Positions 49,936 through 64,000 of a stretch of 64,000 nucleotides of DNA are shown piece by piece. The notes beneath the pieces are model-generated. The model was not told the origin of the DNA and ran no database searches. It saw only the letters and a list, made by a program, of their open reading frames with translations. The stretch covers positions 2,296-66,295 of the forward strand of contig CAZLBC010000001.1 of NCBI GenBank assembly GCA_964557575.1, written 5' to 3'. The translations under genes were made by a program, and so were the position numbers. Origin of the DNA: an uncultured Planctomycetaceae bacterium (lineage in GTDB: Bacteria > Planctomycetota > Phycisphaerae > SM23-33). The stretch's first letter is position 1. Every line of letters starts with the position of its first letter.

Positions 49936-49956
49936 TCCGCCCTCGATCGTTAAAAA

Positions 49957-50030: not shown

Positions 50031-50036
50031 GTCGGT

Positions 50037-50324: not shown

Positions 50325-50407
50325 CTAAAGCACCTCCCTCAACCGTAATATCGGATCAAAGGCGCGAAACGTTAAGTGCTTTTTCAAATTACAGGGGAAA
50401 TTTATAG

Positions 50408-50481
50408 TCCTCCGGGCGGGATTCGAACCTGCAACCGTCCCGTTATGAGCGGGGAACTCTAACCGTTGAGTTTACCGGAGG
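50408..50481 (-). tRNA. tRNA-Met (anticodon CAU; elongator or Ile-lysidine type)
   Basis: Acceptor CCUCCGG/CCGGAGG, A73. Loop CUCAUAA. Confidence 0.6.
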
Positions 50482-50484
50482 AGA

Positions 50485-50520
50485 TGGCGCGCCCGCGAGG
50501 ACTCGAACCCCGAATCTTCC
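50485..50520 (-). other. tRNA 3'-half-like fragment (T-arm + acceptor 3' strand + CCA)
   Basis: CGGGG-UUCGAGU-CCUCG-CGGGCGC-G-CCA with no 5' acceptor partner. Followed upstream by a 16-bp hairpin. Confidence 0.4.
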
Positions 50521-50554
50521 TGCGCCTTTCGTCTTTTCGACCAGTACCTCCTGC

Positions 50555-50591
50555 TTCTAAACAGTAGAAGCAGAGGGTACGAATGCCAAGA
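50555..50591. repeat. 16-bp near-perfect hairpin
   Basis: GTACCTCCTGCTTCTA-AACAG-TAGAAGCAGAGGGTAC between tRNA-like elements. Confidence 0.5.
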
Positions 50592-50597
50592 TAAAAG

Positions 50598-50678
50598 CAG
50601 CGGCGACGGGAGTCGAACCCGCATGTGTCCAGTTACCCTTTCTCCAGTTTAGAAGACTGAGGGGATACACCGCTGATC
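50598..50678 (-). tRNA. tRNA-like gene, anticodon undetermined
   Basis: Good acceptor (AGCGGUG/CGCCGCU) and T-arm (GCGGG-UUCGACU-CCCGU), but the central cloverleaf could not be resolved by eye. Confidence 0.35.
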
Positions 50679-50865
50679 CGTTGTGCTATGAGCGCGTTTA
50701 GTTTTGGCCTGCCGTCGGGTTACGATCCCGACTCCCCAGTCTCGCCTCCAGCTTCAGGATGGCCATCCGTCTGCTATCGGCCCACGTGGAAGGGGCGCGG
50801 TCCAACGATCATCGACAGGTTTTGAAAAACGCGAGTTTTCCGTGCCCGGAAAACGGGAAATTCAA

Positions 50866-50943
50866 TGGTGCCCCCGGTCGGATTCGAACCGACACCTTGA
50901 CCGCTTTTGAAGCGGCTCCCTCTGCCAATTGGGGTACGGGGGC
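50866..50943 (-). tRNA. tRNA with Leu anticodon CAA, class I architecture
   Basis: Same 5' half as 49957..50030. Loop UUCAAAA. A73 and CCA encoded. Confidence 0.5.
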
Positions 50944-51101
50944 GACCTCGGACGCCTTGCGCTCCCTCTTCGACGAAGGACACCTTGGCAGGTCTGCGCC
51001 TTGCCGGTGCCGGGATCGCCGGGGTATTTAGGCCACCGGCCCGTCAGAGTCCCCGACGCAACCCGCGTCGCGAAGTACGAGCCTGTCGTACAGGACCCTG
51101 A

Positions 51102-51126
51102 CGGGCCGAACGGGATTCGAACCCGC
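51102..51126 (-). other. tRNA 3'-half-like fragment
   Basis: GCGGG-UUCGAAU-CCCGU-UCGGCCC-G with no 5' partner. The next tRNA starts 27 nt away. Confidence 0.35.
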
Positions 51127-51152
51127 ATCTTCCGAGCTTCTCTAAAATCAAA

Positions 51153-51227
51153 TGGGACGGGTGGGATTCGAACCCACGGTTTCCTGATTAAAAGTCAGGT
51201 GCATTAGGCCAACTATGCTACCGACCC
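51153..51227 (-). tRNA. tRNA-Lys (anticodon UUU)
   Basis: Stem CCUGA/UCAGG with loop CUUUUAA. D-stem GCAU/AUGC. Confidence 0.6.
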
Positions 51228-51426
51228 GTGTACTTTTTCCACCGAACAACCTCCGTCCACTTGTTTTTCGCCGATGGAGGCTCGACTTCCATAATCTGTT
51301 TCGCACTGCATTCCACACAGTATCGAAATTCAGCCCATCGCTGCCATTTATGAAATCCAATCGAGCAACGAAGAGGACGTTTCAAAAATCCCAGCATCGC
51401 CAAACGCCTCGAAAAAACAGTAAGAG

Positions 51427-51499
51427 CTGCTCCGGCAGGGTTCGAACCTGCAATCTTCTGATTCAGAGTCAGACGCGTTTCCATTTACGCCACGGAGCA
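51427..51499 (-). tRNA. tRNA-Gln (anticodon CUG)
   Basis: U1:A72 as in tRNA-Gln. Stem UCUGA/UCAGA with loop CUCUGAA. Confidence 0.65.
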
Positions 51500-51501
51500 G
51501 A

Positions 51502-51577
51502 TGGTCCTGCCGGAAGGAATCGAACCTTCTAATACCACCTTATCAGAGTGGCCTCTGTACCATTCGAGTTCGACAGG
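51502..51577 (-). tRNA. tRNA-Ile (anticodon GAU)
   Basis: Loop CUGAUAA. CCA encoded. Confidence 0.6.
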
Positions 51578-51582
51578 AAAAA

Positions 51583-51656
51583 TACGTCCGGCGGGATTCG
51601 AACCCGCGACCTTCGGTTTAGGAAACCGATGCTCTATCCGATTGAGCCACGGACGC
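51583..51656 (-). tRNA. tRNA-Arg (anticodon CCU)
   Basis: D-arm GCUC-AAUCGGAUA-GAGC. Loop UUCCUAA. Confidence 0.65.
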
Positions 51657-51657
51657 G

Positions 51658-51891
51658 TCACGATCCGCCGTAGACGGGATTGTACGGCGACGTCGCAGAA
51701 GCATTCATTTCATACACGCTCACGCCGGTCGCGTCCGTCACGACGGTCTCTTCGGTGACGATGGACACGTCGGCGTAATACTGCGAAAGCAGAGAAGTCA
51801 TCTCGGCGGCGACGCCGGTCAAGACGACTTTCTTCTCGGCTCCGGGAAGCGTTGAATCCGGGATGGTAACGACGATTTTGAATCCGGCCAT
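51658..51891 (-). CDS. hypothetical protein
   Basis: GGAGGAG RBS. Abuts tRNA-Arg(CCU). Confidence 0.5.
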   Translation of the reverse strand: MAGFKIVVTIPDSTLPGAEKKVVLTGVAAEMTSLLSQYYADVSIVTEETVVTDATGVSVYEMNASATSPYNPVYGGS

Positions 51892-51924
51892 GACGGTCTC
51901 CTCCGTTGTTTCAACCGAGGCGGA

Positions 51925-52749
51925 TTATAACACGAGCCGGAAACCGTCGCCAACAGACAGGGTGGACACGTACGACATGGCCTTCTCGCGCGCTTCCAAC
52001 AGGCGGACGAACTCTTTTTGAGAGCCGCCCTTGTCGGGGTGCGCGACCTTGGCTTTCTCGCGGAAGTTGCGCATGACGACGCGCTTCGCCGCTTCCATGT
52101 CGTCCGGGAGTTCCACGCGGCTGACGTCGAGGACGTCCCACCACCATTCCGACGGAGGCTTGACAGGTTCCGGTTCCCTCGCGGGATCAGGTTCCGACCG
52201 AGCCGATCCGAGTTTCGGAATGAAGTGGATTACGCTCAACGACTTGTCGGAGTCCGGGTAGCCGAACATGGTCAACGTCGTCTTGAACGTCAACCCGTGG
52301 TGCGCCGCGACGACAAGCGGTTCAATCGCCTGTTCGCGGACTCCGGGATTCGTCCGAAGCTGGACGTACTCCCTGACCTCGGCGAGCGTCGGCTTGTCCG
52401 CCTTCGACTTCAAAAAGACGTCCGCCGCGTGGTAAATCTCCCACGGGGTGGACAGCCAGCTTCCGACTGTTTCCTCCCCGTCACCATCCGGTCTTTGCGG
52501 GAACTCGCCCTGCGGAAAATGCACGTACTCGGCGGTGTACCAAGGTTCGCGTTCGTACACGCCCATTCGGCTCAATTTCATCTCCGGCTTCACGTTATAC
52601 GCGACGACGGGCATCCCCGTGGCGGTGCGTCCCTTAAACACGGTTCGAGTTCCCATGAAGTCCGTCTTCTCGTACGTGTAAACGTAGACGGGGCGCGGTC
52701 TAGGCGGTTCTCGCGTGTAGTCGGTGAACAGGATAAGAAGCTCGTTCAT
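51925..52749 (-). CDS. J-domain (DnaJ-like) protein
   Basis: C-terminal ...KVAHPDKGGSQKEFVRLLEAREKA with an HPD motif. A promoter-like motif lies upstream. Confidence 0.55.
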   Translation of the reverse strand: MNELLILFTDYTREPPRPRPVYVYTYEKTDFMGTRTVFKGRTATGMPVVAYNVKPEMKLSRMGVYEREPWYTAEYVHFPQGEFPQRPDGDGEETVGSWLSTPWEIYHAADVFLKSKADKPTLAEVREYVQLRTNPGVREQAIEPLVVAAHHGLTFKTTLTMFGYPDSDKSLSVIHFIPKLGSARSEPDPAREPEPVKPPSEWWWDVLDVSRVELPDDMEAAKRVVMRNFREKAKVAHPDKGGSQKEFVRLLEAREKAMSYVSTLSVGDGFRLVL

Positions 52750-52765
52750 GGATCAAGAAATAACT

Positions 52766-52785
52766 CGGGAAGTTTCGTGCGTCAA
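52766..52785. promoter_or_regulatory. single promoter-like unit upstream of J-domain gene
   Basis: AACTCGGGAAGTTTCGTGC. Confidence 0.3.
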
Positions 52786-52797
52786 ATGAAAAATAGA

Positions 52798-52872
52798 TGG
52801 TACTCCCGGCAGGAGTCGAACCTGCATCTCGACATTCGGAGTGTCGCGCCTTGTCCGTTGGGCCACGGGAGT
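52798..52872 (-). tRNA. tRNA-Arg (anticodon CCG)
   Basis: Stem CGACA/UGUCG with loop CUCCGAA. CCA encoded. Confidence 0.6.
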
Positions 52873-52877
52873 AAAAA

Positions 52878-52954
52878 TGGCATCCGGCGAGGGACTCGAA
52901 CCCCCAATCGCGACATTCGTAGTGTCGTGCCTTATCCAGTTAGGCCAGCCGGAT
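52878..52954 (-). tRNA. tRNA-Arg (anticodon ACG)
   Basis: D-arm GCCU-AACUGGAUA-AGGC. Loop CUACGAA. Confidence 0.6.
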
Positions 52955-52995
52955 GCATTCGCGGAACGTTATCGGTTGTCAAAGAGCATTCAAAA

Positions 52996-53068
52996 TTACC
53001 CCGGCAGGGTTCGAACCTGCAACCTTCTGATTCAAAGTCAGAAACGCTTCCAGTTGCGCCACGGGGTA
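52996..53068 (-). tRNA. tRNA-Gln (anticodon UUG)
   Basis: U1:A72. Stem UCUGA/UCAGA with loop CUUUGAA. Confidence 0.65.
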
Positions 53069-53076
53069 CCGAATAT

Positions 53077-53152
53077 TGGAGGCCCCAGCCGGAGTCGAAC
53101 CGAGCGATAAACGATTTTGCAAACCGTCCCCTTGCCGCTTGGGTATGGAGCC
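53077..53152 (-). tRNA. tRNA-Cys (anticodon GCA)
   Basis: Loop UUGCAAA. U73 discriminator and CCA. Confidence 0.6.
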
Positions 53153-53158
53153 ATGGAG

Positions 53159-53232
53159 GGTGACCGACGAGGTTCGAACTCGTACTCTTCTGACTCACAA
53201 TCAGGTATGTTGCCAATTACACTACGGTCACC
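53159..53232 (-). tRNA. tRNA-His (anticodon GUG)
   Basis: Extra G-1 pairing with C73. Loop UUGUGAG. Confidence 0.65.
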
Positions 53233-53243
53233 GTCGAATGCTA

Positions 53244-53333
53244 TGGTGCGGGATGAAGGAATTGAACCTTGTCGGCAGCCACCACGATGTTTTGCGCCAG
53301 AGACTTTACAGGCCCCCTCGTGGAACATCCCGC
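53244..53333 (-). tRNA. tRNA-Tyr-like (anticodon GUA), atypical 90-nt structure
   Basis: Perfect acceptor GCGGGAU/AUCCCGC-A-CCA and a T-loop UUCAAUU. Loop CUGUAAA in a GGGGC/GUCUC stem, but no room for a normal D-arm. CCACGA/UCGUGG pairing encloses the anticodon arm. Confidence 0.35.
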
Positions 53334-53349
53334 ACTTGGTTTTCAAAGA

Positions 53350-54291
53350 TCAAGCCTGCGACAGTTTCAGCCAGATCGCGACCATGATTTCGTCGACGAC
53401 TTCGTCAACGGTGCGATCCTTGGTTTCAACAACGCAGTCGGCTTCCGCCGGTTCTTCGTACGGATCGTCGATCCCGGTGAATCCCTTGATCTCACCGGCG
53501 CGGGCTTTCGCGTACAAGCCCTTGACGTCCCGCGCTTCGCACTCTTCGAGACTGGTGGCGACGTGGACCATGAAGAACCGCTTGTCGCCGATCAGGTCTC
53601 TCGCGGACTGCCGGGCTTCCGCATACGGCGAGATCGCCGCCGTGATCGCGATTCCTCCGACGTCGGCGACCGACTTCGCCACGAAGGAAAGCCTTCGAAT
53701 GTTTTCGTCCCGGTCCTCTTTCGAGAATCCGAGTCCCCGGTTCAAGTTCGTCCGGACCTCGTCGCCGTCCAGAACCTTCACCCGGTGTCCGAGTTCGTTC
53801 AACCGGCTTTCAAGAGCCACAGCGATAGTGCTCTTGCCAGAACCTGACAGCCCGGTAAACCAGATGACAAGGCCATTGCCTGCGTCACCACCGGTTGCGA
53901 GGACTTCCGCCGTCGCCATTGGAACCTTTTCCCGCCACGACTCGTCGCCTTCCGCCATGAGCGTTCGGACTTGGGTCGCCGAGATTCCGCCGATCTCCGG
54001 CGGCACGACGTCCTGTAAGTCACGAACTTCATAGCCGACCTTTCGTCCGACGACCACCGCCGCGATGTCCGGGATGGCCATGACGCGAACACAACCGGTT
54101 TTGATTTCGTCGGAGTACACGGCGCGGATCATCGCGATCCGCTCTCCCAGCGTGTACGGGTCTCCGTCGTTGACCGGCGTGTCCCGCACGGCGATCAAGA
54201 CGTTCTCGTCGCGATCCAGAGCTTGCTGGATCAGCCATTTGTGGCCATTGTGGAACGGCTGCCACCGGCCGATGTAAAGCGCGTACTTCAT
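53350..54291 (-). CDS. cysC: bifunctional HxGH-nucleotidyltransferase-like / adenylylsulfate (APS) kinase
   Basis: N-terminal [12 protein letters not shown] ((H/T)xGH nucleotidyltransferase). C-terminal [13 protein letters not shown]...LDGDEVR...AISPY matches the APS kinase core. GAAGGGAG RBS. Confidence 0.75.
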
Positions 54292-54356
54292 TCGTAAACT
54301 CCCTTCAAAAAAATTTGCGCTGAAGAGAGGATAGCAACGCCGCGCTTTTCATTCAA

Positions 54357-54433
54357 TGGTGCTCCGGGTGAGAGTCGAACTCACACTGTACAGTGTCTGA
54401 AACTGCTCCCTCTGCCAATTGGGGTACCGGAGC
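54357..54433 (-). tRNA. tRNA with Leu anticodon CAG, class I architecture
   Basis: Same D-arm and T-arm family as 49957..50030. Stem GCAGU/ACUGU with loop UUCAGAC. A73 and CCA. Confidence 0.5.
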
Positions 54434-54438
54434 GTAGA

Positions 54439-54512
54439 TGTCCACGGTGAGAGTCGAACTCACACTTTCATGATCCTTAGTCATGTCCCTCTGCCAATTG
54501 GGGTACGTGGAC
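54439..54512 (-). tRNA. tRNA with Leu anticodon AAG, class I architecture
   Basis: Stem CAUGA/UCAUG with loop CUAAGGA. A73. Confidence 0.5.
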
Positions 54513-54518
54513 GAATTT

Positions 54519-54594
54519 TGGCTCTCCGGGGTGGACTCGAACCACCAACCTACTGCTTAACAGGCAGTCGCTGCTACCATTGAGCTACCGGAGA
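54519..54594 (-). tRNA. tRNA-Asn (anticodon GUU)
   Basis: Stem ACUGC/GCAGU with loop CUGUUAA. CCA encoded. Confidence 0.6.
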
Positions 54595-54601
54595 ACGTAA
54601 A

Positions 54602-54674
54602 TGGACCGGAGGGGAATCGAACCCCTGACCTTCTACTTGCAAAACAGATGCTCTACCGATTGAGCTACCAGCCC
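54602..54674 (-). tRNA. tRNA-Ala (anticodon UGC)
   Basis: G3:U70 wobble pair. Loop UUUGCAA. Confidence 0.65.
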
Positions 54675-54766
54675 GTGAACGCCGTCGGAAAAGGTTGCCG
54701 GGCGTTATTTGATTGTGCATCATTCACATTGATGTGCGTTTACCAGTTACGCCAACCCGCCGTCAA

Positions 54767-54793
54767 GGTGGCGGGTGAAGGATTCGAACCTCC
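54767..54793 (-). other. tRNA 3'-half-like element in a hairpin
   Basis: GGAGG-UUCGAAU-CCUUC-ACCCGCC-A-CC. The acceptor-like strand pairs with a downstream GGCGGGU instead of a 5' tRNA half. Confidence 0.3.
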
Positions 54794-54838
54794 ATTACTG
54801 AAACGTCTGGACAGGTTCCGACGGCGAATATTGCGTCA

Positions 54839-54910
54839 ACGAGTGCCGGATTCGAACCCAAAACCAACCACCCTCGTACACGCGGGTTCGTCGCGCTAGG
54901 ACTCGTTGAC
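54839..54910 (-). pseudogene. degenerate tRNA-like sequence
   Basis: Perfect 7-bp acceptor AACGAGU/ACUCGUU and UUCGAAU loop, but a poor T-stem and no D-arm. Confidence 0.3.
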
Positions 54911-54936
54911 TTGATTTTCAAAGATCGAAAAATTTA

Positions 54937-55011
54937 TGGTGGCTCCCCGCCGAGTCGAACGGCGACTTCCGCGTTTTCAGCGCGGCGTACACTCCAGTAT
55001 ACGAGAGAGCC
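54937..55011 (-). tRNA. tRNA-Phe (anticodon GAA)
   Basis: Stem CCGCG/CGCGG with loop CUGAAAA. CCA encoded. Confidence 0.6.
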
Positions 55012-55013
55012 AA

Positions 55014-55050
55014 TTAAAAAACCCCTGTCCGGAGGGCCGAACAGGGGTTT
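55014..55050. terminator. rho-independent terminator (strong on minus strand)
   Basis: CCCCTGT-CCGGAGGGCCGA-ACAGGGG flanked by an A-run and a T-run. Precedes tRNA-Phe on the minus strand. Confidence 0.55.
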
Positions 55051-55246
55051 CGTGTGTGCAACCGGTGTTCAGCCCTACGTGGTGCCCTCCAAATTGAAGG
55101 CATAAATCGCCGCGCACGACAGGAGGTTTCTGTCGTTGTGGCGATGTATCTGTTGGCTGAATCGTTTGGTGAACATCATCATGTTTCCGTTCGCGCCTTT
55201 CGGCGTTCCGTTCGTATCACGATGGAAATGTACAAGGGTCGACGCG

Positions 55247-55272
55247 CGGCGTCAAGAAACTTCCCAATATTT
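55247..55272. promoter_or_regulatory. same unit in inverted orientation within palindrome CAAGAAA...TTTCTTG
   Basis: CAAGAAACTTCCCAATATTTTTCTTG. Confidence 0.3.
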
Positions 55273-55281
55273 TTCTTGTTT

Positions 55282-55527
55282 TTATTCCGACGTCTTCCAC
55301 GTCCACGTTACCGCTTCCTCCGGCTCTTCCGGACCGCGATCCGGAATAATCACGATCCGGCTCGTCAACGAAACATCGCAAACCGCGTCGGATTCCGCGA
55401 TTTCCCGGATCAACTCCCGAATCGCGGTCATGTGCTTCGTGATCTTCGATCGGTACTCCGCGAGTTCCGGACGGATGTCGTTCACGAGTTCTTCCTTCGG
55501 AACAAGCACGTTTTTAACGGTTTTCAT
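55282..55527 (-). CDS. hypothetical protein
   Basis: GAGGTGA RBS. Confidence 0.5.
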   Translation of the reverse strand: MKTVKNVLVPKEELVNDIRPELAEYRSKITKHMTAIRELIREIAESDAVCDVSLTSRIVIIPDRGPEEPEEAVTWTWKTSE

Positions 55528-55530
55528 GCG

Positions 55531-56136
55531 TCACCTCGCGTTATGGTTCGATTGCACCTGCCGGATTCCAAACCCGTCGCTGTGCATAACGATTTGCGAT
55601 GCGGGATTGTTCGTCTCGGAACCTGCGTCAAGCCGAACGCGGTACGCTTCGCCGAAAGACTCGTCCAGCCGTTCGACGATAACGCCCGGCGTGCGCGCGC
55701 TGAAAACATCGGTGATCACCCCGTCGCCGACCCGGTAGTCCACGCCAATGTCTCGCAAGTTGAAAACGGCCTGCAAACCGCCGAGCGAAGACATGCTGTC
55801 CAGTACGCGCGGGTCGTCCGGGTTCCTGTCCACATCGAACGACCGCTCTTCGCCGTCGCCGTAAAACGCGGACACCTTGCGGCCGACGACGTCAACCACC
55901 GCGCCGAACAGCGCGCCGATAACGTGATCGCTGGCGATCCACAACACGGGGTCGCCTACGCGGAAATCCTTCGTGAGAAGCGTTGGGGGCGCGACAGGAC
56001 GTCGAACGCGCTGCAGTACGGCATCTGCGGACGGGGGAAGGTTAAACGCCGCCAGAGAAGCGTACAAACGGCTTCCGCGCGGAACGCCGTTGTCCACGAC
56101 CTTCCCGCGAACGTGAAACTTCATGTTGGATTCCAC
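55531..56136 (-). CDS. hypothetical protein
   Basis: GTG start after GAGGAG. Confidence 0.5.
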   Translation of the reverse strand: MESNMKFHVRGKVVDNGVPRGSRLYASLAAFNLPPSADAVLQRVRRPVAPPTLLTKDFRVGDPVLWIASDHVIGALFGAVVDVVGRKVSAFYGDGEERSFDVDRNPDDPRVLDSMSSLGGLQAVFNLRDIGVDYRVGDGVITDVFSARTPGVIVERLDESFGEAYRVRLDAGSETNNPASQIVMHSDGFGIRQVQSNHNAR

Positions 56137-56600
56137 TGCACGATCTCCTCGACGTCAACATCCTCGAAATCCGTCAAGGGGATCGCGCGGCCCTCCTTGC
56201 GAAGTCCGAGTACCGTCTGGTCTAACAACTGAAGTATCGGCGGACTGACAAACACGAGGCACTTCCGGAACTCGTCTTCCGCGACGTCGGCGATCTTCCT
56301 AAGCGGGGTTAAACGGATCGCCTGCCGGAACATGTGAAGGGAGGCGCGCATGTAGACTTCCGTGTCGAGGCTGTCGCCCAACCGGTAACCTTCAACGCGG
56401 CGATGCGGCGCGCCGCGCTCCACGGGACCCGCGTTCTTGGCTAAGTCGCGCTCAACCCGCAAGCGGCGCGACACGAACTCCAGCGAATCATAGACAACGA
56501 TCCCGATCGGAAACGCGTCGGGGTTGATGACAACCGGGGCGATCACCGTGTTTCCCTCGGCGACGTACGCGTAAACCCATTTTCCCTCAAATCGGGGCGT
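56121..56600 (-). CDS. C-terminal portion of a protein that may be joined to the upstream ORF by a +1 frameshift
   Basis: The protein-like frame begins with no start codon at ...FEGKWVYAYVAEG. It is reached from ORF 56587..56901 by a +1 shift at AUU UGA G. Confidence 0.3.
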   Translation of the reverse strand, partial: TPRFEGKWVYAYVAEGNTVIAPVVINPDAFPIGIVVYDSLEFVSRRLRVERDLAKNAGPVERGAPHRRVEGYRLGDSLDTEVYMRASLHMFRQAIRLTPLRKIADVAEDEFRKCLVFVSPPILQLLDQTVLGLRKEGRAIPLTDFEDVDVEEIVQWNPT

Positions 56601-56901
56601 CAGCACAACTGGATTCCTCTCCGAACCGTCCCTTGCGAAGCACGCGAAGAAGCGGGTACACTTTCGGGTTCTCTTCCGCAAGCGCGGCGAAGAAACGACA
56701 CCGCTTGACAATGAAGTCGGTGCGCCCCACACCGCCGACCACGCAAGCGACACGCGGCGACGGTTCGTCTTCCATGTAAACGCGCGCGACCTCGGCTTCC
56801 GGGATGATCTTCGAAAGCATCACGAAGGCTTCGTTGAACTCCCGGCGGAGGCCGTTCTCGTTAACCCAGTTCAGGACTTCCGGTTCCACGTTCTTTTTCA
56901 T
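56587..56901 (-). CDS. hypothetical protein (N-terminal part of possible frameshifted gene)
   Basis: GGAGAG RBS. Ends at a TGA that overlaps the continuing frame. Confidence 0.45.
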   Translation of the reverse strand: MKKNVEPEVLNWVNENGLRREFNEAFVMLSKIIPEAEVARVYMEDEPSPRVACVVGGVGRTDFIVKRCRFFAALAEENPKVYPLLRVLRKGRFGEESSCADAPI

Positions 56902-57094
56902 TATCGCTCTCCGTGCCGCGTTCCGCGTCGAGAGCAGTATCCGAGATCAGTTTCGAATAGTCAAATTCGTCCCCGGTCGGGCTTTCAACCGTTGAAAGCA
57001 TGACCGACGCAAGCTGATGTCCGATGCTCGATCTCCAAAGCCATGTGGACCTTTTCCGGGGAAAACCCCCGAATTTCATTGAACGAAATCATCC
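56861..57094 (-). CDS. small protein whose two halves lie in different frames (possible +1 frameshift)
   Basis: ATG at 57094 sits 7 nt after AAGGAG and gives MISFNEIRGFSPEKVHMALEIEHRTSACVGHAFNG, then TGA. The +1 frame continues ESPTGDEFDYSKLISD... to 56861. Confidence 0.3.
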
Positions 57095-57171
57095 GGTTTC
57101 TCCTTGTAAAAGAAGCCCGCGAGGGGAACGCGGGCTGCTGACGGGGTGATCGACGGATTTTGGGGATACCG

Positions 57172-57486
57172 TCAATCGTTGGGTTTCGGGTGGATTCGGG
57201 CCAGAATGTCGACTTGAGAAATCAGCATGTAATCCTCGTCGTCGACTTTGATTTCGGTTCCCCCGTACATCGCGATGATGACGCGGTCTCCGCTTTTGAG
57301 GGGGCACTCCCCGTCCCCGTCCTCGACGGGAACATTGATCACGGTCGCCTTGTTCGTGGCCTGCTGCGCCGTGTGCGGCAGTATAATGCCGCCTTTCGAG
57401 ACGTCTTCCGGCTTGTCTTTTTGAACGAGAATACGATCGTTCAACGGTTCAAGTCGGCACGTCTTCTTTTTCGCTTCGGACGTCAT
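57172..57486 (-). CDS. groES: co-chaperonin GroES
   Basis: GGAAGGAG RBS. LEPLNDRILVQK...GGIILPHTAQ...GDRVIIAMYGGTEIKVDDEDYMLISQVDILA matches the Cpn10 family. Confidence 0.8.
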   Translation of the reverse strand: MTSEAKKKTCRLEPLNDRILVQKDKPEDVSKGGIILPHTAQQATNKATVINVPVEDGDGECPLKSGDRVIIAMYGGTEIKVDDEDYMLISQVDILARIHPKPND

Positions 57487-57533
57487 TCCGGACTCCTTCC
57501 TGAAAAAATGGTGGATCGTGCTAAAAAATTTTT

Positions 57534-57640
57534 GACCCTGACAGGATTCGAACCTGCACTGCATTAGTTTCTTGCACCACTTCACAGCCCGGCTCTTGGT
57601 GCAACACACCGGGGCGTCTGCCATTTCCGCCACAGGATCA
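57534..57640 (-). other. tRNA-like element (about 107 nt) with unresolved fold
   Basis: 3' end GCAGG-UUCGAAU-CCUGU-CAGGGUC-A pairs with GAUCCUG 107 nt upstream. D-loop AAAUGGCAGA resembles the Leu-type family. Confidence 0.25.
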
Positions 57641-57648
57641 AATTCTAA

Positions 57649-57670
57649 ACACACACACACACACACACAC
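57649..57670. repeat. (AC)11 dinucleotide microsatellite
   Basis: ACACACACACACACACACACAC in the non-coding region between the tRNA-like element and the tmRNA. Confidence 0.8.
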
Positions 57671-57852
57671 GACTTTGGCGAACCGCAGCGTAACGCATCC
57701 GCACCGACCGCCATTGACCCTACTCCGGTAACGCGGCTCAGTCCTGACCAAGCCCCTTCGGGTCCGCGCCGACCTGATGGATGCCGAACTATAGCGTCAC
57801 GTGCCGGACTTACAACATCACGTACTCGACGATCTCAAAGCCGTGAATATTT

Positions 57853-58315
57853 TGGTGGAGGCGAGGGGAATCGAACCCCTGTGCTGAATCTCTTCCGTAT
57901 CAGCGTCCCCATGTTCACCCTAGTCCTGCCTCACTCCAAGGGTACGGTGAGGGGCTTGTTGTGACACGTTTCCAGTGCCGCACACGGGTCGTGCGCAAAT
58001 GAGGAGTGCGTCTTTCCGCGTCGTCCCTCGTATGTACCTCGAACGCCGGGACTTACTTGTCAGCCGTCTCTCCGCACAGGGTTGTCCCCGTGGCCCCCAT
58101 GTTTCGCTCGCCGCTACTTAGGGTGCGCTGTCCGTTCTTGTAGGTGTCCCCATGACGTTACCAGAACAATCTCACGTCATGGAGTGCGGCTAGGCCGCGT
58201 TTGCTAAAGCAGGTTCAGCAATTAGTTGTTGAGCGCAGTTTTTAACGTGGACTGACGTTCATACCACGACATGCAGCCGATACTTCCAACGACCAGTCGA
58301 AACCAAGTCGCCCCC
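57853..58315 (-). ncRNA. ssrA: tmRNA (SsrA-like)
   Basis: 5' end GGGGGCGACUUGGUUUCGACUGG pairs with 3' end AGGGG-UUCGAUU-CCCCU-CGCCUCC-A-CCA. The UUCGAC 5' motif matches bacterial tmRNAs. Internal candidate tag reading frame ...AEPALANAA-UAG. No protein-coding ORF over 800 nt. Confidence 0.55.
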
Positions 58316-58352
58316 GATTTTCAAAGATCACGCTGAAACGGGTAATTCCGTT

Positions 58353-58850
58353 TCAGCGGCGCAAAATACTGTCGAAAATCCCGGAGAATCCGCTGACGAA
58401 AACCGGGCAATTACAAAATTCGATCCCGGCGGCTTCGATCCGCTGCTCGATCTCAGCCTGCAACACGAGCCAAGCGATCGTCCCGATCTTGTCCGCCGTA
58501 GAACGCCCGACGGGCTTCTCCGAAAATGTTCCGTCATCGTCGGGAACCATCACCGAGACGCGGAATCCGGACGGTTTGACTGGTACCGTGACCGCGTCTT
58601 CGGAATACTTGGCCGCGCTTTCGTCAGCCGAGTAGGTCTCCGTGACGTAGATTTCGCGTACTCCCTTGAATTTGACCTTGATCAGTTCGTCCCCCGCGTC
58701 CTCGTGCGAGACGGCCTCTTGATCCGGCATGTCGACCTCTGCGGCCGTAAACATGTCGGAAACCAAATCGACGAGTTCAAACAAACGCTTGACGCGCTCT
58801 TCCTCGGTCCGCTCGACACGGAGCTTCGCTTCAACCTGAATCTTCGGCAT
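58353..58850 (-). CDS. hypothetical protein
   Basis: GAGGAGG RBS. Lies downstream of the tmRNA. Confidence 0.55.
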   Translation of the reverse strand: MPKIQVEAKLRVERTEEERVKRLFELVDLVSDMFTAAEVDMPDQEAVSHEDAGDELIKVKFKGVREIYVTETYSADESAAKYSEDAVTVPVKPSGFRVSVMVPDDDGTFSEKPVGRSTADKIGTIAWLVLQAEIEQRIEAAGIEFCNCPVFVSGFSGIFDSILRR

Positions 58851-58918
58851 CTTTTTTTTCCTCCTCGATTACCGATTCCTCTACACCCGTATATATCGGC
58901 AAACGAGGGCAAAAAACA

Positions 58919-59386
58919 TTAGTCTTTCTTCGACTTTTTCTTCTTTTTTCGTTTCTTGCGGTTCAGCGGCGACGGCTCGTCCTGCGGAAGGTACCCGCTT
59001 CCGGGTTGTCCCATCGCAGCGGAGGTCTGCGAGAATCCGCCGACATTCCCCGACGTCATCGCTTCGCCGACGGTGCCCTTGTCGGCATTGTCCCGGACTG
59101 TCCGCGCGGCTTTCAGCAGTCCGGCCTTGACCTCGTCGAACGGGATCACCGTGGAGTAGTAATACGGGTCCTCCGTCAGGTGATCCAGCGTGATTTCCAA
59201 CGCCTCTCCGGCGTCGTCGGTGTGTTCCATTTCAACAGCAATGCCCGCGACAATCTGGCAGTAGCAAAAATCTCTGACACGTGCGTCGTCCCCGACGCCG
59301 CCTTCGACCTCATTACCCGCCATGCTCGGGTCGTCATCGGATTCCCGGAGCATCCGGTGCATCACGTCTCGACTTGTACGCTTCAT
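58919..59386 (-). CDS. hypothetical protein with poly-Lys C-terminus
   Basis: ACGGAGGG RBS at Met19. Confidence 0.5.
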   Translation of the reverse strand: MKRTSRDVMHRMLRESDDDPSMAGNEVEGGVGDDARVRDFCYCQIVAGIAVEMEHTDDAGEALEITLDHLTEDPYYYSTVIPFDEVKAGLLKAARTVRDNADKGTVGEAMTSGNVGGFSQTSAAMGQPGSGYLPQDEPSPLNRKKRKKKKKSKKD

Positions 59387-59444
59387 AAAAAAGCCCTCCG
59401 TTTCGCAACCAAGTATGCGACGGAGGGCCTCACGTGTCAAATAA

Positions 59445-59515
59445 TGCGTCGGACGGGGATCGAACCCGTTACCACGTTTTTAGAGAACGCCGCCTATCCA
59501 TTCGGCTTCCGACGC
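59445..59515 (-). tRNA. tRNA with anticodon CUA (amber-suppressor-like)
   Basis: Acceptor GCGUCGG/CCGACGC, A73. Anticodon stem GCGUU/AACGU with loop CUCUAAA (U33, anticodon CUA, purine 37). T-arm ACGGG-UUCGAUC-CCCGU. Confidence 0.5.
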
Positions 59516-59523
59516 AATTCGAC

Positions 59524-60216
59524 TTAAACGTCCGAGATGCGGCCGGTCTTGGGATCGACGTCGACGACAAACGGGGAAACGGAAGGTCCGTACCGGTTCA
59601 CCGGGACCGACACCTCGGCTCGATTGTGCATCCGAAGGTCTTCCGGACGGTGAATCTCGATCACCGCTGTCGCCATCGCCGCCGTCGCCCACGGGGCTTC
59701 CCCGGGACCTTCCCTCGAAGACTCCTTTGACGATCCGCTGTCGAAATCCCCGTTGCGTCGCAACTGGGTACTGGTGAACACCGGACACCCCAGCGCGGCC
59801 CCGACGCGCTGCAGCGCGCAAAAAGCCAAAGACGTGCTGATACGCGGAATCGGGTCCACGATCAGCATGTCGGTCTGGAAAGCCGCACGCGAGACCACGC
59901 CCAACACGTCGAAGAAAACCAAATCGGGCGACAACGTCCGGTACGTGTCGGAAAACAACGATCCGTCAACCTCGTTCGGGAGAAAGTCGCTGTACTTGAG
60001 CATGACCTCGCTCGGCGACAATTCGAAGTCGGAGGTCATGTGGATCACGTTGAACCCGTTCAACGCGGCGTGCGCTCCGATGGAGCAAAGCATCGAAGTC
60101 TTCCCGTCCTTCGGGCGCGCCGCGACCACGACCACGTCACCCGCGTGAAACCCTTTGTCCGGGTGACTCGCGCGAACGGCGTTGTTGATTTTTGAAAAGG
60201 GAGTTTCAATCGACAT
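59524..60216 (-). CDS. DnaB-like / RecA-fold ATPase domain protein
   Basis: VVVAARPKDGKTS Walker A and LIVDPIP Walker B-like. Only the C-terminal helicase domain is present. Confidence 0.5.
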   Translation of the reverse strand: MSIETPFSKINNAVRASHPDKGFHAGDVVVVAARPKDGKTSMLCSIGAHAALNGFNVIHMTSDFELSPSEVMLKYSDFLPNEVDGSLFSDTYRTLSPDLVFFDVLGVVSRAAFQTDMLIVDPIPRISTSLAFCALQRVGAALGCPVFTSTQLRRNGDFDSGSSKESSREGPGEAPWATAAMATAVIEIHRPEDLRMHNRAEVSVPVNRYGPSVSPFVVDVDPKTGRISDV

Positions 60217-60286
60217 GATTCGGTCCTCGATTAGAAAAAGGTGAAAAGAAAAGCCGAACCCTGTCCAAAGGTTCGGCCGGTTTCAG

Positions 60287-60652
60287 TCATTCGCGTTCGG
60301 AGCAATACTGCATGGTCGTCATCGCGAACTGCTGCGACCAACCCCATTCGTCCATGACGAACTGGTTGAACTCCTCGGTCGTCAGTTCGACTTCGTCGCC
60401 GACTTGAAGCTCGAACATCCGAATGAACTTGTTGTACTCCTTCTCGAACGTCCGTGGTGCCTGTTTGGCGAACGGGACGAGAGGGTCTCCGTTGCTGACG
60501 CGTTCGATCTGCTCCTGCAGGTGCTTGACGACCTGCTTCTGGTAGATTTCCTGCGCCTCTTCGGCGTTCTTGATGTGCGTCTCCCGATTCTTCCGGAGAA
60601 TCTCCAGAATCTCGGCCTTGGGAAAACGACGTACCGTCGCGTTGCGGTTCAT
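60287..60652 (-). CDS. hypothetical protein
   Basis: ORF 60287..61042 trimmed to Met131 behind GAGGAGG. Confidence 0.5.
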   Translation of the reverse strand: MNRNATVRRFPKAEILEILRKNRETHIKNAEEAQEIYQKQVVKHLQEQIERVSNGDPLVPFAKQAPRTFEKEYNKFIRMFELQVGDEVELTTEEFNQFVMDEWGWSQQFAMTTMQYCSERE

Positions 60653-60675
60653 GTCGTGTACCTCCTCAAAGTGGT

Positions 60676-60713
60676 AAAAAAAAAACGAACCGGTCAGACG
60701 TTCTGACCGGTTT
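60676..60713 (-). terminator. rho-independent terminator
   Basis: 11-bp stem AACCGGTCAGA/TCTGACCGGTT followed by U10 on the minus strand. Confidence 0.6.
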
Positions 60714-60879
60714 CCTGTTCCTGTTGTACCGCCCGGATCACCGCGATGTGCTGGATAAACGCTTCTTTCGCGAATTTCTCGACTTCGTGTTTTTGCGCGA
60801 CCGCGTCTTTCGAACCGTAGTGTTTCGCGATTGACTCGCGAACGGCGCGTTCGACATCGATTGTGACCTTGACCTTCAT
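60694..60879 (-). CDS. small hypothetical protein
   Basis: CGGAGGA RBS at Met22. The stop lies inside the terminator stem. Confidence 0.45.
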   Translation of the reverse strand: MKVKVTIDVERAVRESIAKHYGSKDAVAQKHEVEKFAKEAFIQHIAVIRAVQQEQETGQNV

Positions 60880-61011
60880 CGGTTCCTCCGAGAATAAAAC
60901 CGCGCCGGTCGCCTCCCCCGGTGTCAGATACCGCAGTGCCAAAGAACCGGGTTATCGTCCTGCGGTCTGTGAGGCGGCAATCGCTCCACCATGACCGGCG
61001 CGGAATTTTAA

Positions 61012-61084
61012 TCGTCGCGGAGGGATTCGAACCCCCAACCAACTGGGTGTAAACCAGTCACTCTAACCGTTGAGTTACGCGACG
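61012..61084 (-). tRNA. tRNA-Val (anticodon UAC)
   Basis: D-arm ACUC-AACGGUUA-GAGU. Stem ACUGG/CCAGU with loop UUUACAC. Confidence 0.6.
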
Positions 61085-61092
61085 GATGCCCG

Positions 61093-61410
61093 CTACATTT
61101 CCAACGTGATGGTTCCCTGTTTTCCTCCGGAACTTCCGACAATTTCGCCATGGAGGATGTAGCAGTTCTCCATGGAACGAACCGCGTCGCGCTTCAAAAT
61201 GAAATCGTCGGGGTCGCCGTCGGATTCCTTCACGACAACGAAAACATCCCGGGGCGTCATCGTCAGCTTTTTCGGGATGTCCGGGACATCGCCCGCTTGC
61301 GTTTCGAACACCTTGACGGCGCATCCCGCGTCCGCAAGAGAATGCCGAATTGCTTCGGCGACTGTCGTCTTTCCCGCGCCGACCGGGCCTTCAATCGTAA
61401 TCTTCAACAT
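61093..61410 (-). CDS. P-loop NTPase (small kinase-like)
   Basis: GAGGTGGA RBS at Met18. GPVGAGKTT Walker A. Confidence 0.5.
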   Translation of the reverse strand: MLKITIEGPVGAGKTTVAEAIRHSLADAGCAVKVFETQAGDVPDIPKKLTMTPRDVFVVVKESDGDPDDFILKRDAVRSMENCYILHGEIVGSSGGKQGTITLEM

Positions 61411-61463
61411 TAGTGTCCACCTCGTGTTCAAACTATAAAATGAACTGAGCTGCCGCACCAACT

Positions 61464-62564
61464 TTATTGCGCGCCTTTTCTACGATTACAATCCGCGCAA
61501 AGCATACGTCCATTATTCGTATCCGTCTTGCCGCCTTGAGACCATGGAGTAATATGGTCGGCGTGCATTTCCGCCAGATCGCATTCTTTATCACATTGCG
61601 CGCATTGGCCGCTTTGTTTCTCATACATCGTGCGTCGTTGCTTCTTATCGAAAGCTCGAATGTTGAGATGTTTTACTTCTCCCGTGAGAACATACGCATA
61701 AATCCCGCGTTTATTCGTCACGTCTTCATCAGCCATCAACACGGAAATCCGATCTTCCAACTCTTCAGCATCAAGCGTGTCATTTTTGTGAGCTTCGTAC
61801 ATTTCATTCCACGGCAAGCCCTTCATCTCTTTGCGGTATTCCGTAAATACCGTTTGGACCCAGCGTATCACTTTTTTGAAGTAGTTCCATAGAGAATTTG
61901 CATTTTGCCGGTGCTGATGGGTCGCCATGTAAGATCGAATGTGCATGTCGTTCGGCTGATTCTCTTTCGTCGCCCACTTGATGGCCAATTCAAGCAATTC
62001 TTGCCGAATCGGACTGCCTTTGACGTAGGCCCCTCCAAGTTGATAAGCCGCACAGCTTCTCCGAGAAAACCGTCTCTTCGCGTCGGACAACCATGGACCA
62101 GTATATACAGCGTTGCGTAGTTCTTGTTCAGTTAATGGTTCTCCGGCAATGTTAACGGTCTTGAACCATTCCAATAACTCGGTATGACTTCCCGAGCACT
62201 GATAAATCATGAGTTCGTAGTCAAGAATGCGGGACTGGGTCTCTTCACCCAAGTTGGCAAAGTTCATTGCATTGACTTGGAACATGCCGGAAACGTATTG
62301 GCAGATTGAAATAGTGCGTTGCTGTCCGTCGAGGATTTCGAAAGTGTCATCATCATGTTTGGCCCAGTACATGATATTAAGGGGCAAGCCTTTGAGCACG
62401 GAGTCAATAACCGCATTACGTTGGGCGGCGTCATAAACGAACTCTCGTTGATATGGCGGTCGGATGTCTAACAGGCCGTTGTAGCCTTTGACTCCTTCTT
62501 CCGCGTTATCTTCGTACCCGGCCACAACTTCGCGAATCGGGATATTGTGCAGTTCAACTCTCAT
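61464..62564 (-). CDS. DUF262 + HNH (GmrSD-like type IV restriction endonuclease-like)
   Basis: N-terminal ILDGQQRT (DGQQR, DUF262/ParB-like NTPase). C-terminal HADHITPWSQGG...N...CADCNRRKG (HNH/DUF1524). Low GC compared with its surroundings. Confidence 0.7.
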   Translation of the reverse strand: MRVELHNIPIREVVAGYEDNAEEGVKGYNGLLDIRPPYQREFVYDAAQRNAVIDSVLKGLPLNIMYWAKHDDDTFEILDGQQRTISICQYVSGMFQVNAMNFANLGEETQSRILDYELMIYQCSGSHTELLEWFKTVNIAGEPLTEQELRNAVYTGPWLSDAKRRFSRRSCAAYQLGGAYVKGSPIRQELLELAIKWATKENQPNDMHIRSYMATHQHRQNANSLWNYFKKVIRWVQTVFTEYRKEMKGLPWNEMYEAHKNDTLDAEELEDRISVLMADEDVTNKRGIYAYVLTGEVKHLNIRAFDKKQRRTMYEKQSGQCAQCDKECDLAEMHADHITPWSQGGKTDTNNGRMLCADCNRRKGAQ

Positions 62565-62628
62565 GAGGTTATTCCTTTGTTGTCATTTGTTTCTGTACAG
62601 TTCTGTCATGTATGCGTAGGAATAATGA

Positions 62629-62826
62629 TTATACATCTTCCTCTGTAATATCGCCTATCTTGATTAAGACGTATTGGTAAAACCTACTGTCATTACTAGG
62701 ACTTAAAGAAATACGTCCTATTGGCACCTTAAAACAGGGGTCATTTTCTGTGGTTTTGATCTCTATCGTATTACCTGTTTGCCTACAAAAGTAAGTATTA
62801 ATACGGGTTCTTTTCTTGTCTTTCAT
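62629..62826 (-). CDS. small hypothetical protein (island)
   Basis: AT-rich 65-aa ORF between the MTase and the GmrSD-like gene. Confidence 0.4.
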   Translation of the reverse strand: MKDKKRTRINTYFCRQTGNTIEIKTTENDPCFKVPIGRISLSPSNDSRFYQYVLIKIGDITEEDV

Positions 62827-62836
62827 GTCTTGTTTC

Positions 62837-63820
62837 CTATTCCTCTGTTGTTATTGGATGAAGGTTGCGAATGAGTACCCTGACATACTTAGTCTTCCCA
62901 TTAACTGATCCTTCTTTATCTTTGATTAGTCCATGAGGTTTGCTCGGTATTGCTCGTGACTTTTTGAGGTCATTGCAATTTAGTATCTCAAATTGTCTTG
63001 GGCAATATTTATCAAGGAACGTAATTGGCACGCCCATCACTCCGGGATAGTCCTCGGGAATATCTTTTACGCTATCGACGTTAATGGCGTCGTAGTTATC
63101 ATAGGCGAGATGTTTGTCGGGGTCGTAAAGCGCGATCAGGTCAATTGGTTGGTTGCGTTTCTTGTGGTTCATGTTGGTAAACCAACATGTATTGCCTAAT
63201 TTGACAAACTTCTGTCCCCCATCCTCATAACATCCACGTTTTCCTATTGGAGTATTATCGGGTACTCGATAAGAGCGACTTCCGCCTACTACCCCCATCC
63301 ATACCTTGTTCTCCCTGATAAGCGGAAACATCTCCTTATATGTAAGCGCATTCATATTGCCGATGATCAAGAACTTCTTTTTATACTGGACAAGTTGTGC
63401 GACGTATTCACGAAACAGGGAGAATGGCGGGTTGGTACAAACTATGTCGGCTTCCTTTAGCAACTCCACGCACTCCGGGCTGCGAAAATCCCCGTCACCC
63501 GCCAAAGGGGTAATCTCGATTTCATCTATATCAGGAACGCCGTTGCCGTTTTGGTCGCCTTCATATACGAACTTCATGGCGCGACCTGTTAGTCCGCCGA
63601 TGTATGAAGTCGCGATAAGCTTCTTTAGCTTCAGATGCTCGAACTGCTTGGCGAAGTAATCCCAGAACTTTGATTCCAACGGGTCGTCGCAATTCAGGTA
63701 GACGACTTTGTTCTTGAAATGTCGCCAGTAATGGTATGCCTCGGCTTCGATATCCTCAAGGCGGGTATAGAACTCGTCGTTCTTCGTCGTCTTCGCTTTA
63801 TGCAGATTGCGATTTGCCAT
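62837..63820 (-). CDS. DNA methyltransferase (N6-adenine/N4-cytosine, NPPF motif)
   Basis: AAGGAG RBS. CTNPPFS motif IV and an FxGxG-like IATSYIGG. AT-rich relative to the rest of the window. Confidence 0.7.
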   Translation of the reverse strand: MANRNLHKAKTTKNDEFYTRLEDIEAEAYHYWRHFKNKVVYLNCDDPLESKFWDYFAKQFEHLKLKKLIATSYIGGLTGRAMKFVYEGDQNGNGVPDIDEIEITPLAGDGDFRSPECVELLKEADIVCTNPPFSLFREYVAQLVQYKKKFLIIGNMNALTYKEMFPLIRENKVWMGVVGGSRSYRVPDNTPIGKRGCYEDGGQKFVKLGNTCWFTNMNHKKRNQPIDLIALYDPDKHLAYDNYDAINVDSVKDIPEDYPGVMGVPITFLDKYCPRQFEILNCNDLKKSRAIPSKPHGLIKDKEGSVNGKTKYVRVLIRNLHPITTEE

Positions 63821-63841
63821 TCATCTTCTCCTTCCGGCTAT

Positions 63842-63905
63842 CAAATAAAGACCGCCGACCTGATGGTTATGAGCCACCCGAGCTACCTGACTGCTCCATC
63901 CCGCG
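63842..63905 (-). pseudogene. 3'-truncated initiator tRNA-fMet-like gene
   Basis: CGCGGGAUGGAGCAGUCAGGUAGCUCGGGUGGCUCAUAACCAUCAGGUCGGCGGU closely matches the bacterial initiator tRNA 5' two-thirds (anticodon CAU). It breaks after the 5' T-stem, where the RBS of the AT-rich MTase gene begins. Confidence 0.5.
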
Positions 63906-63919
63906 ATCGATTTTCAAAA

Positions 63920-63991
63920 AGCCGAGAGCCGGATTCGAACCGGCGACCTGCGGTTTACAAAACCGCTGCACTGCCTCTGTGCTATCCCGGC
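63920..63991 (-). tRNA. tRNA-Thr (anticodon UGU)
   Basis: Stem GCGGU/ACCGC with loop UUUGUAA. T-arm GCCGG-UUCGAAU-CCGGC. Confidence 0.6.
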
Positions 63992-64000
63992 GTAGTGTCG

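Follow-up and report, generated by a model that had tools for sequence, protein, structure and literature searches.

From our analysis of the 64,000-nt stretch of DNA considered here (hereafter the window), we found a complete one-piece transfer-messenger RNA (tmRNA) gene, ssrA, of 463 nt at 57853..58315 on the minus strand, identified by Rfam family RF00023 and by syntenic homologs on two other contigs, L025 and L029. The architecture of this tmRNA is complete, conserved and covarying, and it is situated within a phage genome. Judged from its sequence and setting, it is very probably the functional one-piece tmRNA (SsrA) gene of a T4-like phage of about 198 kb, carried inside the tRNA gene block of that phage. 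Scanning of the whole window against Rfam 15 with cmscan gave a full-length match to RF00023 (model positions 1-374 of 374, from 58315 to 57853; 88.9 bits, E 3.5e-33), far over the gathering score of 47 bits, which bears out the tmRNA-like identity proposed in a preliminary description of the region as well as the covariance-model scan that was suggested there as a check. Read on the minus strand from 58315 to 57853, the gene starts with GGGGGCGACUUGGUUUCGACUGG, the 5′ end that had been likened to a tmRNA start and that falls within the full-model match, and ends with AGGGGUUCGAUUCCCCUCGCCUCCACCA. The acceptor-stem pairing, T-arm and terminal CCA of the preliminary description are present at exactly the positions it gave, its internal frame AEPALANAA-UAG is read as GCU GAA CCU GCU UUA GCA AAC GCG GCC UAG, and its remark on unusual length agrees with 463 nt as against the 374 positions of the RF00023 consensus. 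The minus strand, the phage origin and the failure of the program ARAGORN on this gene were absent from that description. The parts of the molecule are as follows, nucleotide n of the tmRNA being window position 58316 - n; helices are abbreviated H and pseudoknots PK.

58309..58315, minus strand: 5′ strand of the acceptor stem, GGGGGCG (nt 1-7), pairing with nt 453-459; invariant in the three phages
58269..58296, minus strand: 5′ strand of H2 (nt 20-47), pairing with nt 402-432 (window 57884-57914)
58234..58268, minus strand: PK1 (nt 48-82), stem 1 48-52/66-70 and stem 2 59-64/78-82 with U61 bulged
58190..58219, minus strand: tag frame, with resume codon GCU (nt 97-99), nine codons AEPALANAA and stop codon UAG (nt 124-126), as called by ARAGORN on L025 and on shortened window variants
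58186..58198, minus strand: H5 hairpin GCGGC-CUA-GCCGC (nt 118-130; 118-122/126-130), containing the stop codon; five pairs, invariant
58132..58184, minus strand: PK2 (nt 132-184), stem 1 132-142/158-168 and stem 2 147-153/178-184, seen from covariation
58076..58128, minus strand: insertion of 53 nt found in the window copy alone (nt 188-240), within the 5′ side of stem P3 (186-189/252-255)
57916..58075, minus strand: expanded PK3/PK4 domain (nt 241-400), common to L029
57853..57880, minus strand: T-arm (nt 436-452, AGGGG UUCGAUU CCCCU), 3′ strand of the acceptor stem CGCCUCC (453-459), discriminator A460 and encoded CCA (461-463)

The comparative evidence comes from two relatives, of which L029 is the more distant.

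L025, Logan contig of 5.1 kb from SRR10018917: tmRNA of 340 nt, 108.2 bits, tag called by ARAGORN as AEPALANAA plus stop
L029, Logan contig of 40 kb from SRR17165157: tmRNA of 415 nt, 83.8 bits, tag AEPALAPAA with UAG stop, CCA not encoded

In all three phages, the syntenic order is a DUF5661 gene, a homolog of a 165-aa gene, the tmRNA, a conserved block and the chaperonin gene Cpn10; on L025 the agreement with the window extends over tRNA-Val, tRNA(CUA), the DUF5661 gene, the 165-aa-gene homolog, the gene-free gap and Cpn10. The window and L029 tmRNAs are 86% identical over 413 aligned positions. The window and L025 differ at 15 positions over nt 1-187 and at nine over nt 1-136, none of them in the tag frame, and the differences among the three phages over nt 1-187 are almost all at paired positions. 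Counting compensatory changes from a pair table of these three tmRNAs only, we found two compensatory pairs in the T-stem (against L029) and five in H2, together with three one-sided changes; pairing of H2 (segments 20-28/424-432, 33-40/412-419 and 43-47/402-406) is kept save for the end pair 33-419 in L025. Within it, H2b contributes four compensatory pairs against L025, and H2a-iii one compensatory and three one-sided changes, both of its pairs being kept in all three sequences. PK2 carries eight compensatory pairs in total, seven in stem 1 (four against L029 and three against L025) and one in stem 2. The acceptor stem keeps the G3·U457 wobble, the identity element of alanyl-tRNA synthetase, in all three phages. 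A plausible H-type knot stands at the expected position of PK1; its stem 1 agrees with the covariance-model alignment, in which the pairs given for stem 2 are non-canonical. The pseudoknot and resume-codon context that the preliminary description had left to be looked for is therefore in place, as a plausible PK1 at nt 48-82, GCU at nt 97 and PK2 with compensatory changes.

The length of the gene resides in its 3′ domain (nt 186-400), in which hairpins were recognised at 264-268/289-293, 297-299/306-308, 319-326/330-337, 337-341/349-353 and 364-369/382-387. Five compensatory pairs against L029 fall in these hairpins, and it is to the level of hairpins that the three sequences resolve the domain. 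The 53-nt insertion, absent from L029 and L025, folds locally as two hairpins and takes the place of the CCC strand in the L029 hairpin CAUCCCCG-GAGAGA-CGGGGUG; the flanking P3 pairs 186-189/252-255 (one of them compensatory against L029) and 242-243/250-251 are intact. With only 53 nt and a place in P3 rather than in the T-loop, the insertion is no group I intron. We also considered that it might be a mobile or repeated element and rejected this, as neither the window nor any of the loci compared has a second copy; a 9-nt match of the insertion to the 3′ strand of H2 and a 9/10 match to its 5′ strand are probably due to chance. In L025, by comparison, the 3′ domain is much smaller. The lengths of 340, 415 and 463 nt are indicative of gain and loss in the PK3/PK4 region as the remainder of the molecule stays fixed; most likely, the 3′ domain is where the molecule is under the least constraint, and the added material is simply tolerated there.

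The same length accounts for the silence of ARAGORN, the second check suggested beforehand, which did not call the gene at its native length. Run on the full window and on the sub-region, the program reported 23 tRNAs in the window and no tmRNA. In an in-silico deletion series, variants of 463, 445 and 443 nt gave no call and those of 433 nt or less were called as tmRNA; removing at least 30 nt of the insertion restored the call, with the coding part at nt 97-126, the resume codon at nt 97 and the tag AEPALANAA plus stop. The program thus misses the gene on account of its size, with a cut-off somewhere between 433 and 443 nt, and not because the gene is defective.

The tag itself was followed across databases. 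In a degenerate pattern search, AEPALANAA followed by a stop was absent from IMG/VR contigs and from the species genomes of GTDB r232. The degenerate pattern gave one match in the JGI metagenomes (L026), which is probably coincidental, as neither Rfam nor ARAGORN calls a tmRNA there. The relaxed pattern AEPALAxAA plus stop had 45 matches in GTDB, at two of which ARAGORN called a tmRNA: L060, from the metagenome-assembled genome (MAG) of an uncultured bacterium, with the tag AEPALALAA followed by two stops, and L058, from a Ktedonobacteraceae (Chloroflexota) MAG, with the tag ANKAEPALALAA followed by a stop. The existence of bacterial tmRNAs with the tags AEPALALAA and ANKAEPALALAA indicates that the phage tag is of the ordinary SsrA type; as a pointer to a donor or host lineage, the likeness may be taken as a weak hint and nothing more. 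Where these bacterial tags have an antepenultimate Leu, one phage lineage has AAC (Asn) and the other CCA (Pro), so that all three codon positions differ.

UAG is the stop codon of all three phage tags and UAA that of the L058 and L060 tags, and in all three phages a tRNA(CUA) gene lies 1.1-1.7 kb upstream of the tmRNA.

59444-59516 of the window, minus strand (1934-2004 in L025; 9868-9940 in L029): tRNA(CUA), an amber suppressor, labelled 'Pyl' by ARAGORN

L029 additionally has a UUA (ochre) suppressor tRNA at 4117-4191. Recoding of the stop codon through tRNA(CUA) was considered and ruled out, since five of the 28 confident window genes end normally in TAG and code 11 leaves every long gene intact; from these gene sequences, tRNA(CUA) appears to be a matter of suppression on a standard-code background, not of recoding. 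Past the UAG of the tag, the frame (sequences read by eye) runs PHSMT to a stop in the window, PHSLR to a stop in L029 and for more than 50 codons in L025. As this frame is not conserved, read-through of the tag is not under visible selection and does not look designed; the choice of UAG can be explained structurally, its G being paired within H5.

The placement of the gene inside a bona fide phage genome, and not in flanking host DNA, is borne out by portal, nuclease and intein-bearing ribonucleotide reductase genes and by the synteny of three assemblies. By its gene content, the window is phage DNA; the phage is related to the T4-like group, though distantly, and had not been sampled before. 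Its T4-type portal protein (PF07230, E 2e-39) has at most 28% identity to any portal among 50,697 phage records, SbcC/gp46-like and Mre11/gp47-like nuclease genes are present, and in the public collection the window proteins occur on just one NCBI contig, of 198,081 bp, and on one Logan contig, from SRR7048227, which is identical to the window sequence. No integrase domain was found among the Pfam-annotated genes examined. The main features of this genome are listed below.

33713-35455, minus strand: ORF of the T4-type portal protein
2527-6231, 13616-16477 and 35459-39172, all minus strand: three large genes interrupted by selfish elements, among them the class II ribonucleotide reductase with an intein and an HNH domain
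47494-63991, minus strand throughout: tRNA block with 23 ARAGORN tRNA genes and small genes interspersed
61464-63820, minus strand: GmrSD-N/HNH endonuclease and EcoRI-type adenine methyltransferase (PF13651, E 5e-125), in the final 2.5 kb of the window

The other two of the genes interrupted by selfish elements are a SNF2 helicase gene broken up by a LAGLIDADG domain and a gene for a 1237-aa protein with two intein-splicing hits and a LAGLIDADG domain. Two further tRNA-type genes in the tRNA block were called by Rfam alone (50598-50674, at 30.5 bits, and 57533-57639), and the block also holds an APS-kinase fusion gene besides the GmrSD-HNH and methyltransferase genes. In the L029 relative, about 41 tRNAs were counted within 20 kb. 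The tRNA complement of these phages thus seems, by gene count, to be close to a full decoding set. The GC content at 62001-64000 is 46% as against about 58% elsewhere in the window, which suggests that this DNA was recently acquired.

Searches for further relatives gave little beyond L025 and L029. No match to the tmRNA was found by blastn among the 50,697 phage records of INPHARED. In IMG/VR, an exact pattern of the 27-nt 3′ end was found at 21 loci, which share 30-46 nt, and an exact 5′-end pattern at one locus; as relatives these loci were rejected, since they share the universal ends only. Homolog searches with the 165-aa gene and the phage GroES returned L025 as the only close relative, the next GroES matches being ordinary bacterial groES-groEL loci, and no further relatives came from IMG/VR, the JGI metagenomes or homologs of neighbouring proteins. 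An unrelated 352-nt tmRNA (116.7 bits) was observed on an 88-kb IMG/VR contig (L023, 2202-2553); its first 20 nt are those of the window gene, its 3′ end reads CCACAA, and ARAGORN does not call it either.

How such a gene might act can be proposed from the established biology of tmRNAs. Since no sigma-70-type promoter was recognised directly upstream, the RNA would be cut from a longer transcript by tRNA-processing enzymes. Alanyl-tRNA synthetase would charge it with alanine through G3·U, and it would then bind SmpB, supplied by the host or by a gene in another part of the phage genome. With SmpB, it would enter ribosomes stalled on broken mRNAs, donate its alanine and switch the ribosome to the tag frame; the nascent chain would end in (A)AEPALANAA and the ribosome would be freed at UAG. 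The benefit to the phage is probably an added capacity for ribosome rescue during infection, at the time when host mRNA is degraded. A role in rescue capacity fits the nearby genes for translation and proteostasis (at least 23 tRNAs and GroES), and the same kind of benefit has been proposed for other phage tmRNAs (PMC7162821; PMC9004378).

Several observations weigh against a functional tmRNA. No SmpB was found in the 64-kb window by tblastn with two SmpB queries, of Escherichia coli and Thermus thermophilus (best E 1.5), and it is absent from the Pfam-annotated genes of the related loci (Logan contig L024 and L029). To the lack of a recognised upstream promoter we add that PK1 and H5, being invariant across the three phages, offer no covariation test of either element; that the phage tags have NAA or PAA at the end, where LAA or VAA is usual; and that the P3 stem of the window copy is weakened and carries an insertion not seen in its relatives. 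The last of these points leads to the idea that the window copy is decaying or inactive, disabled by its 53-nt insertion together with three lost P3 pairs, and that only the copies of its relatives work. The insertion is indeed unique to the window and replaces the CCC strand that pairs in L029, and the covariance-model score of 88.9 bits is below the 108.2 bits of L025; L029, however, scores lower still (83.8 bits) without any insertion. The acceptor stem, G3·U, T-arm, H2, PK1, resume codon, tag, H5 and PK2 are all intact, only the 15 differences noted above separate the window from L025 over nt 1-187, and the insertion consists of self-contained hairpins which leave the flanking P3 pairs in order. 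In E. coli, mutagenesis has shown PK2-PK4 to be the most replaceable part of tmRNA, which also counts against decay, and we give this explanation a slim chance. A bacterial source, whether through host contamination, through chimeric assembly or through a piece of ssrA acquired from the host at a prophage attachment site, is scarcely conceivable. Although integration into ssrA, with its 3′ end carried along, is common among phages, and although 21 unrelated IMG/VR contigs have the same 27-nt 3′ end, the gene is of full length rather than a 3′ fragment and those 21 loci share nothing but 30-46 nt. Its order recurs in the assemblies of SRR7048227, SRR10018917 and SRR17165157 amid phage genes and tRNAs, its tag is in no GTDB species genome, and the Pfam-annotated genes examined include no integrase domain.

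The unusual tag ending and stop codon invite yet another explanation, in which the gene is a phage-tuned variant that alters the outcome of trans-translation through a weaker degron (NAA/PAA for LAA), a suppressor-lengthened tag or competition with the host tmRNA. The replacement of the antepenultimate Leu by different residues in two phage lineages, the UAG stop in all phage tags where the bacterial relatives have UAA, and the tRNA(CUA) nearby in all three phages are in keeping with tuning, and a phage tmRNA lacking a coding sequence (that of DS6A) is documented to inhibit the host tmRNA (PMC11915505). In E. coli, however, mutation of the antepenultimate Leu raises the Michaelis constant (KM) of ClpXP modestly, the terminal Ala-Ala is critical (PMC7652416), and the Ala-Ala is retained here; the weakened degron is for these reasons an idea of low probability. 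The frame after UAG is moreover not conserved, and the G of UAG is required for H5 pairing. On balance, tuning in place of ordinary rescue has a chance that is slightly slimmer than that of decay. A related proposal, that the whole clade has re-tuned trans-translation so as to combine rescue with an altered fate of the tagged proteins (slower proteolysis or suppressor-dependent extension of the tag), draws on a tag not found in bacteria, the Leu replacement, UAG with an amber-suppressor tRNA nearby and the fast-expanding 3′ domain (340, 415 and 463 nt); we regard it as rather unlikely. A functional tmRNA of the phage itself, with its core maintained by compensatory changes, remains the explanation that we prefer by far.

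The surroundings of the gene were compared across the same phages. The preliminary description had placed the tmRNA in an ORF-free region of 800 bp, and this stands in so far as the Logan gene calls leave a gap of 866 nt (57487-58352); it does not stand for the mechanical ORF list, in which 57172..57714 (minus), 57572..57964 (plus) and 58328..58537 (minus) overlap the gap. These overlapping ORFs are taken to be spurious. The gap is bounded by a GroES-like gene and the 165-aa gene and, in addition to the tmRNA, holds the conserved block and a tRNA-like gene.

58316..58358, minus strand: upstream of the tmRNA, a hairpin resembling a terminator (58358-58331), where the 165-aa gene ends, and then the 15-nt leader TGATCTTTGAAAATC
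57668-57852, minus strand (4083-4270 in L025; 11809 to about 11995 in L029): conserved block of about 185 nt directly 3′ of the tmRNA
57533-57639, minus strand (4280-4386 in L025): tRNA-like gene of 107 nt, with an Rfam score of 31.9 bits (33.4 in L025) and no ARAGORN call
57172-57486, minus strand: phage GroES (Cpn10, 104 aa), just downstream of the tmRNA and tRNA-like genes

The leader TGATCTTTGAAAATC abuts the mature 5′ end and is conserved in all three phages. The 185-nt block is better conserved across the three phages than the 3′ domain of the tmRNA itself and includes a conserved sigma-70-like motif (TTGTAA-N16-TATAGT, 57815-57788); no Rfam match was found for it at E<=1. A long RNA hairpin was rejected as its explanation, as the 70 pairs predicted by RNAalifold came with a z of -1.04 and 38 of 200 shuffles were as good, and so was a hidden small ORF, as reading frames are not conserved. 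The block may be a promoter and leader for the downstream genes, or an RNA without a counterpart in Rfam. The 107-nt tRNA-like gene has normal acceptor, D- and T-arms, U3·G70 and not G3·U70, and an 'anticodon' stem CCCGG/CCGGG that closes a loop of 16 nt, with an extra region of 28 nt after it; the gene is kept in L025 and absent from L029. Between this gene and the conserved block, the window has a (GT)n/(CA)n microsatellite of about 14 units (57642-57671) that is absent from L025 and L029. The GroES protein is 86% identical to its L025 copy and about 49% identical to the nearest bacterial GroES, and the gene is present in L029.

Phage tmRNAs are already known, and the present gene is ordinary save for its extra length, the lineage-specific expansion of its 3′ domain and a tag ending unseen in bacteria. 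Its length of 463 nt is at the upper end and is not unique. As ARAGORN is blind at this length, with a second case in the IMG/VR locus L082 described below, ARAGORN-based censuses of phage tmRNAs under-count the long forms, and the ARAGORN-based surveys in PMC7162821, PMC9004378 and PMC12484599 would have missed the window gene. The gene adds a small unsampled clade of large T4-like phages with a near-complete tRNA set, GroES and tmRNA. The 340/415/463-nt series is a natural demonstration of a PK3/PK4 domain free to grow or shrink around a fixed core, and the NAA/PAA tag ending offers an inexpensive way to test whether rescue by phage tmRNAs is tied to proteolysis as usual.

Among known systems, the intron-containing and two-piece tmRNA genes resemble the window gene in being longer than the mature standard RNA. 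Unlike the intron forms, of which the smallest known gene is 545 bp (PMC11915505), the window gene has an uninterrupted T-loop (UUCGAUU) and no Intron_gpI match reaching the gathering score; unlike the two-piece (permuted) forms, it keeps the standard order of 5′ tRNA-like domain, tag and 3′ tRNA-like domain, with RF00023 as the best model and no permuted model reported. A prophage attachment-site fragment of host ssrA is ruled out by the full length of the gene. The bacterial tmRNAs L060 and L058 share a near-identical AEPALA-x-AA tag with similar codons but have no detectable similarity to the window gene outside the tag segment, carry Leu at -3 and a UAA stop, and are 350-371 nt long.

Similar in length are long one-piece tmRNAs that we found by a gapped-pattern scan on IMG/VR phage contigs of 175-225 kb.

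L082, 5914-6374: 461 nt
L083, 853-1296: 444 nt
L087, 1401-1836: 436 nt

These genes too lie beside tRNA arrays and have good RF00023 scores, but their sequences are unrelated to the window tmRNA beyond the T-arm. Whereas the extra length of the window gene is in the 3′ pseudoknot domain, that of L082 and L083 consists largely of long tag frames, of about 22 and about 34 codons by eye, from about nt 95. ARAGORN missed the 461-nt tmRNA of L082 and gave L083 and L087 implausible tags starting at nt 226-250.

With the bacterial one-piece tmRNA (RF00023), the window gene has in common the tRNA-like domain with G3·U and CCA, H2, a plausible PK1, a GCN resume codon, a short Ala-rich tag ending in Ala-Ala, the H5 stop, PK2 and more structures on the 3′ side; it differs in being phage-encoded, in its 463 nt, in about five hairpins of the PK3/PK4 region together with the 53-nt insertion, and in the NAA end of its tag. 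Phage-encoded tmRNAs have been recorded in 402 of 18,146 isolate phage genomes (PMC9004378), and are known in huge phages (Al-Shayeb 2020, PMC7162821) and in phage G (PMC12484599). The window gene stands apart from these known phage tmRNAs in having no nucleotide similarity in INPHARED, no relative in IMG/VR and a length beyond the reach of ARAGORN; in essence, it shares with them a complete tmRNA in a large phage with many tRNAs and translation genes, and the proposed support of host ribosomes.

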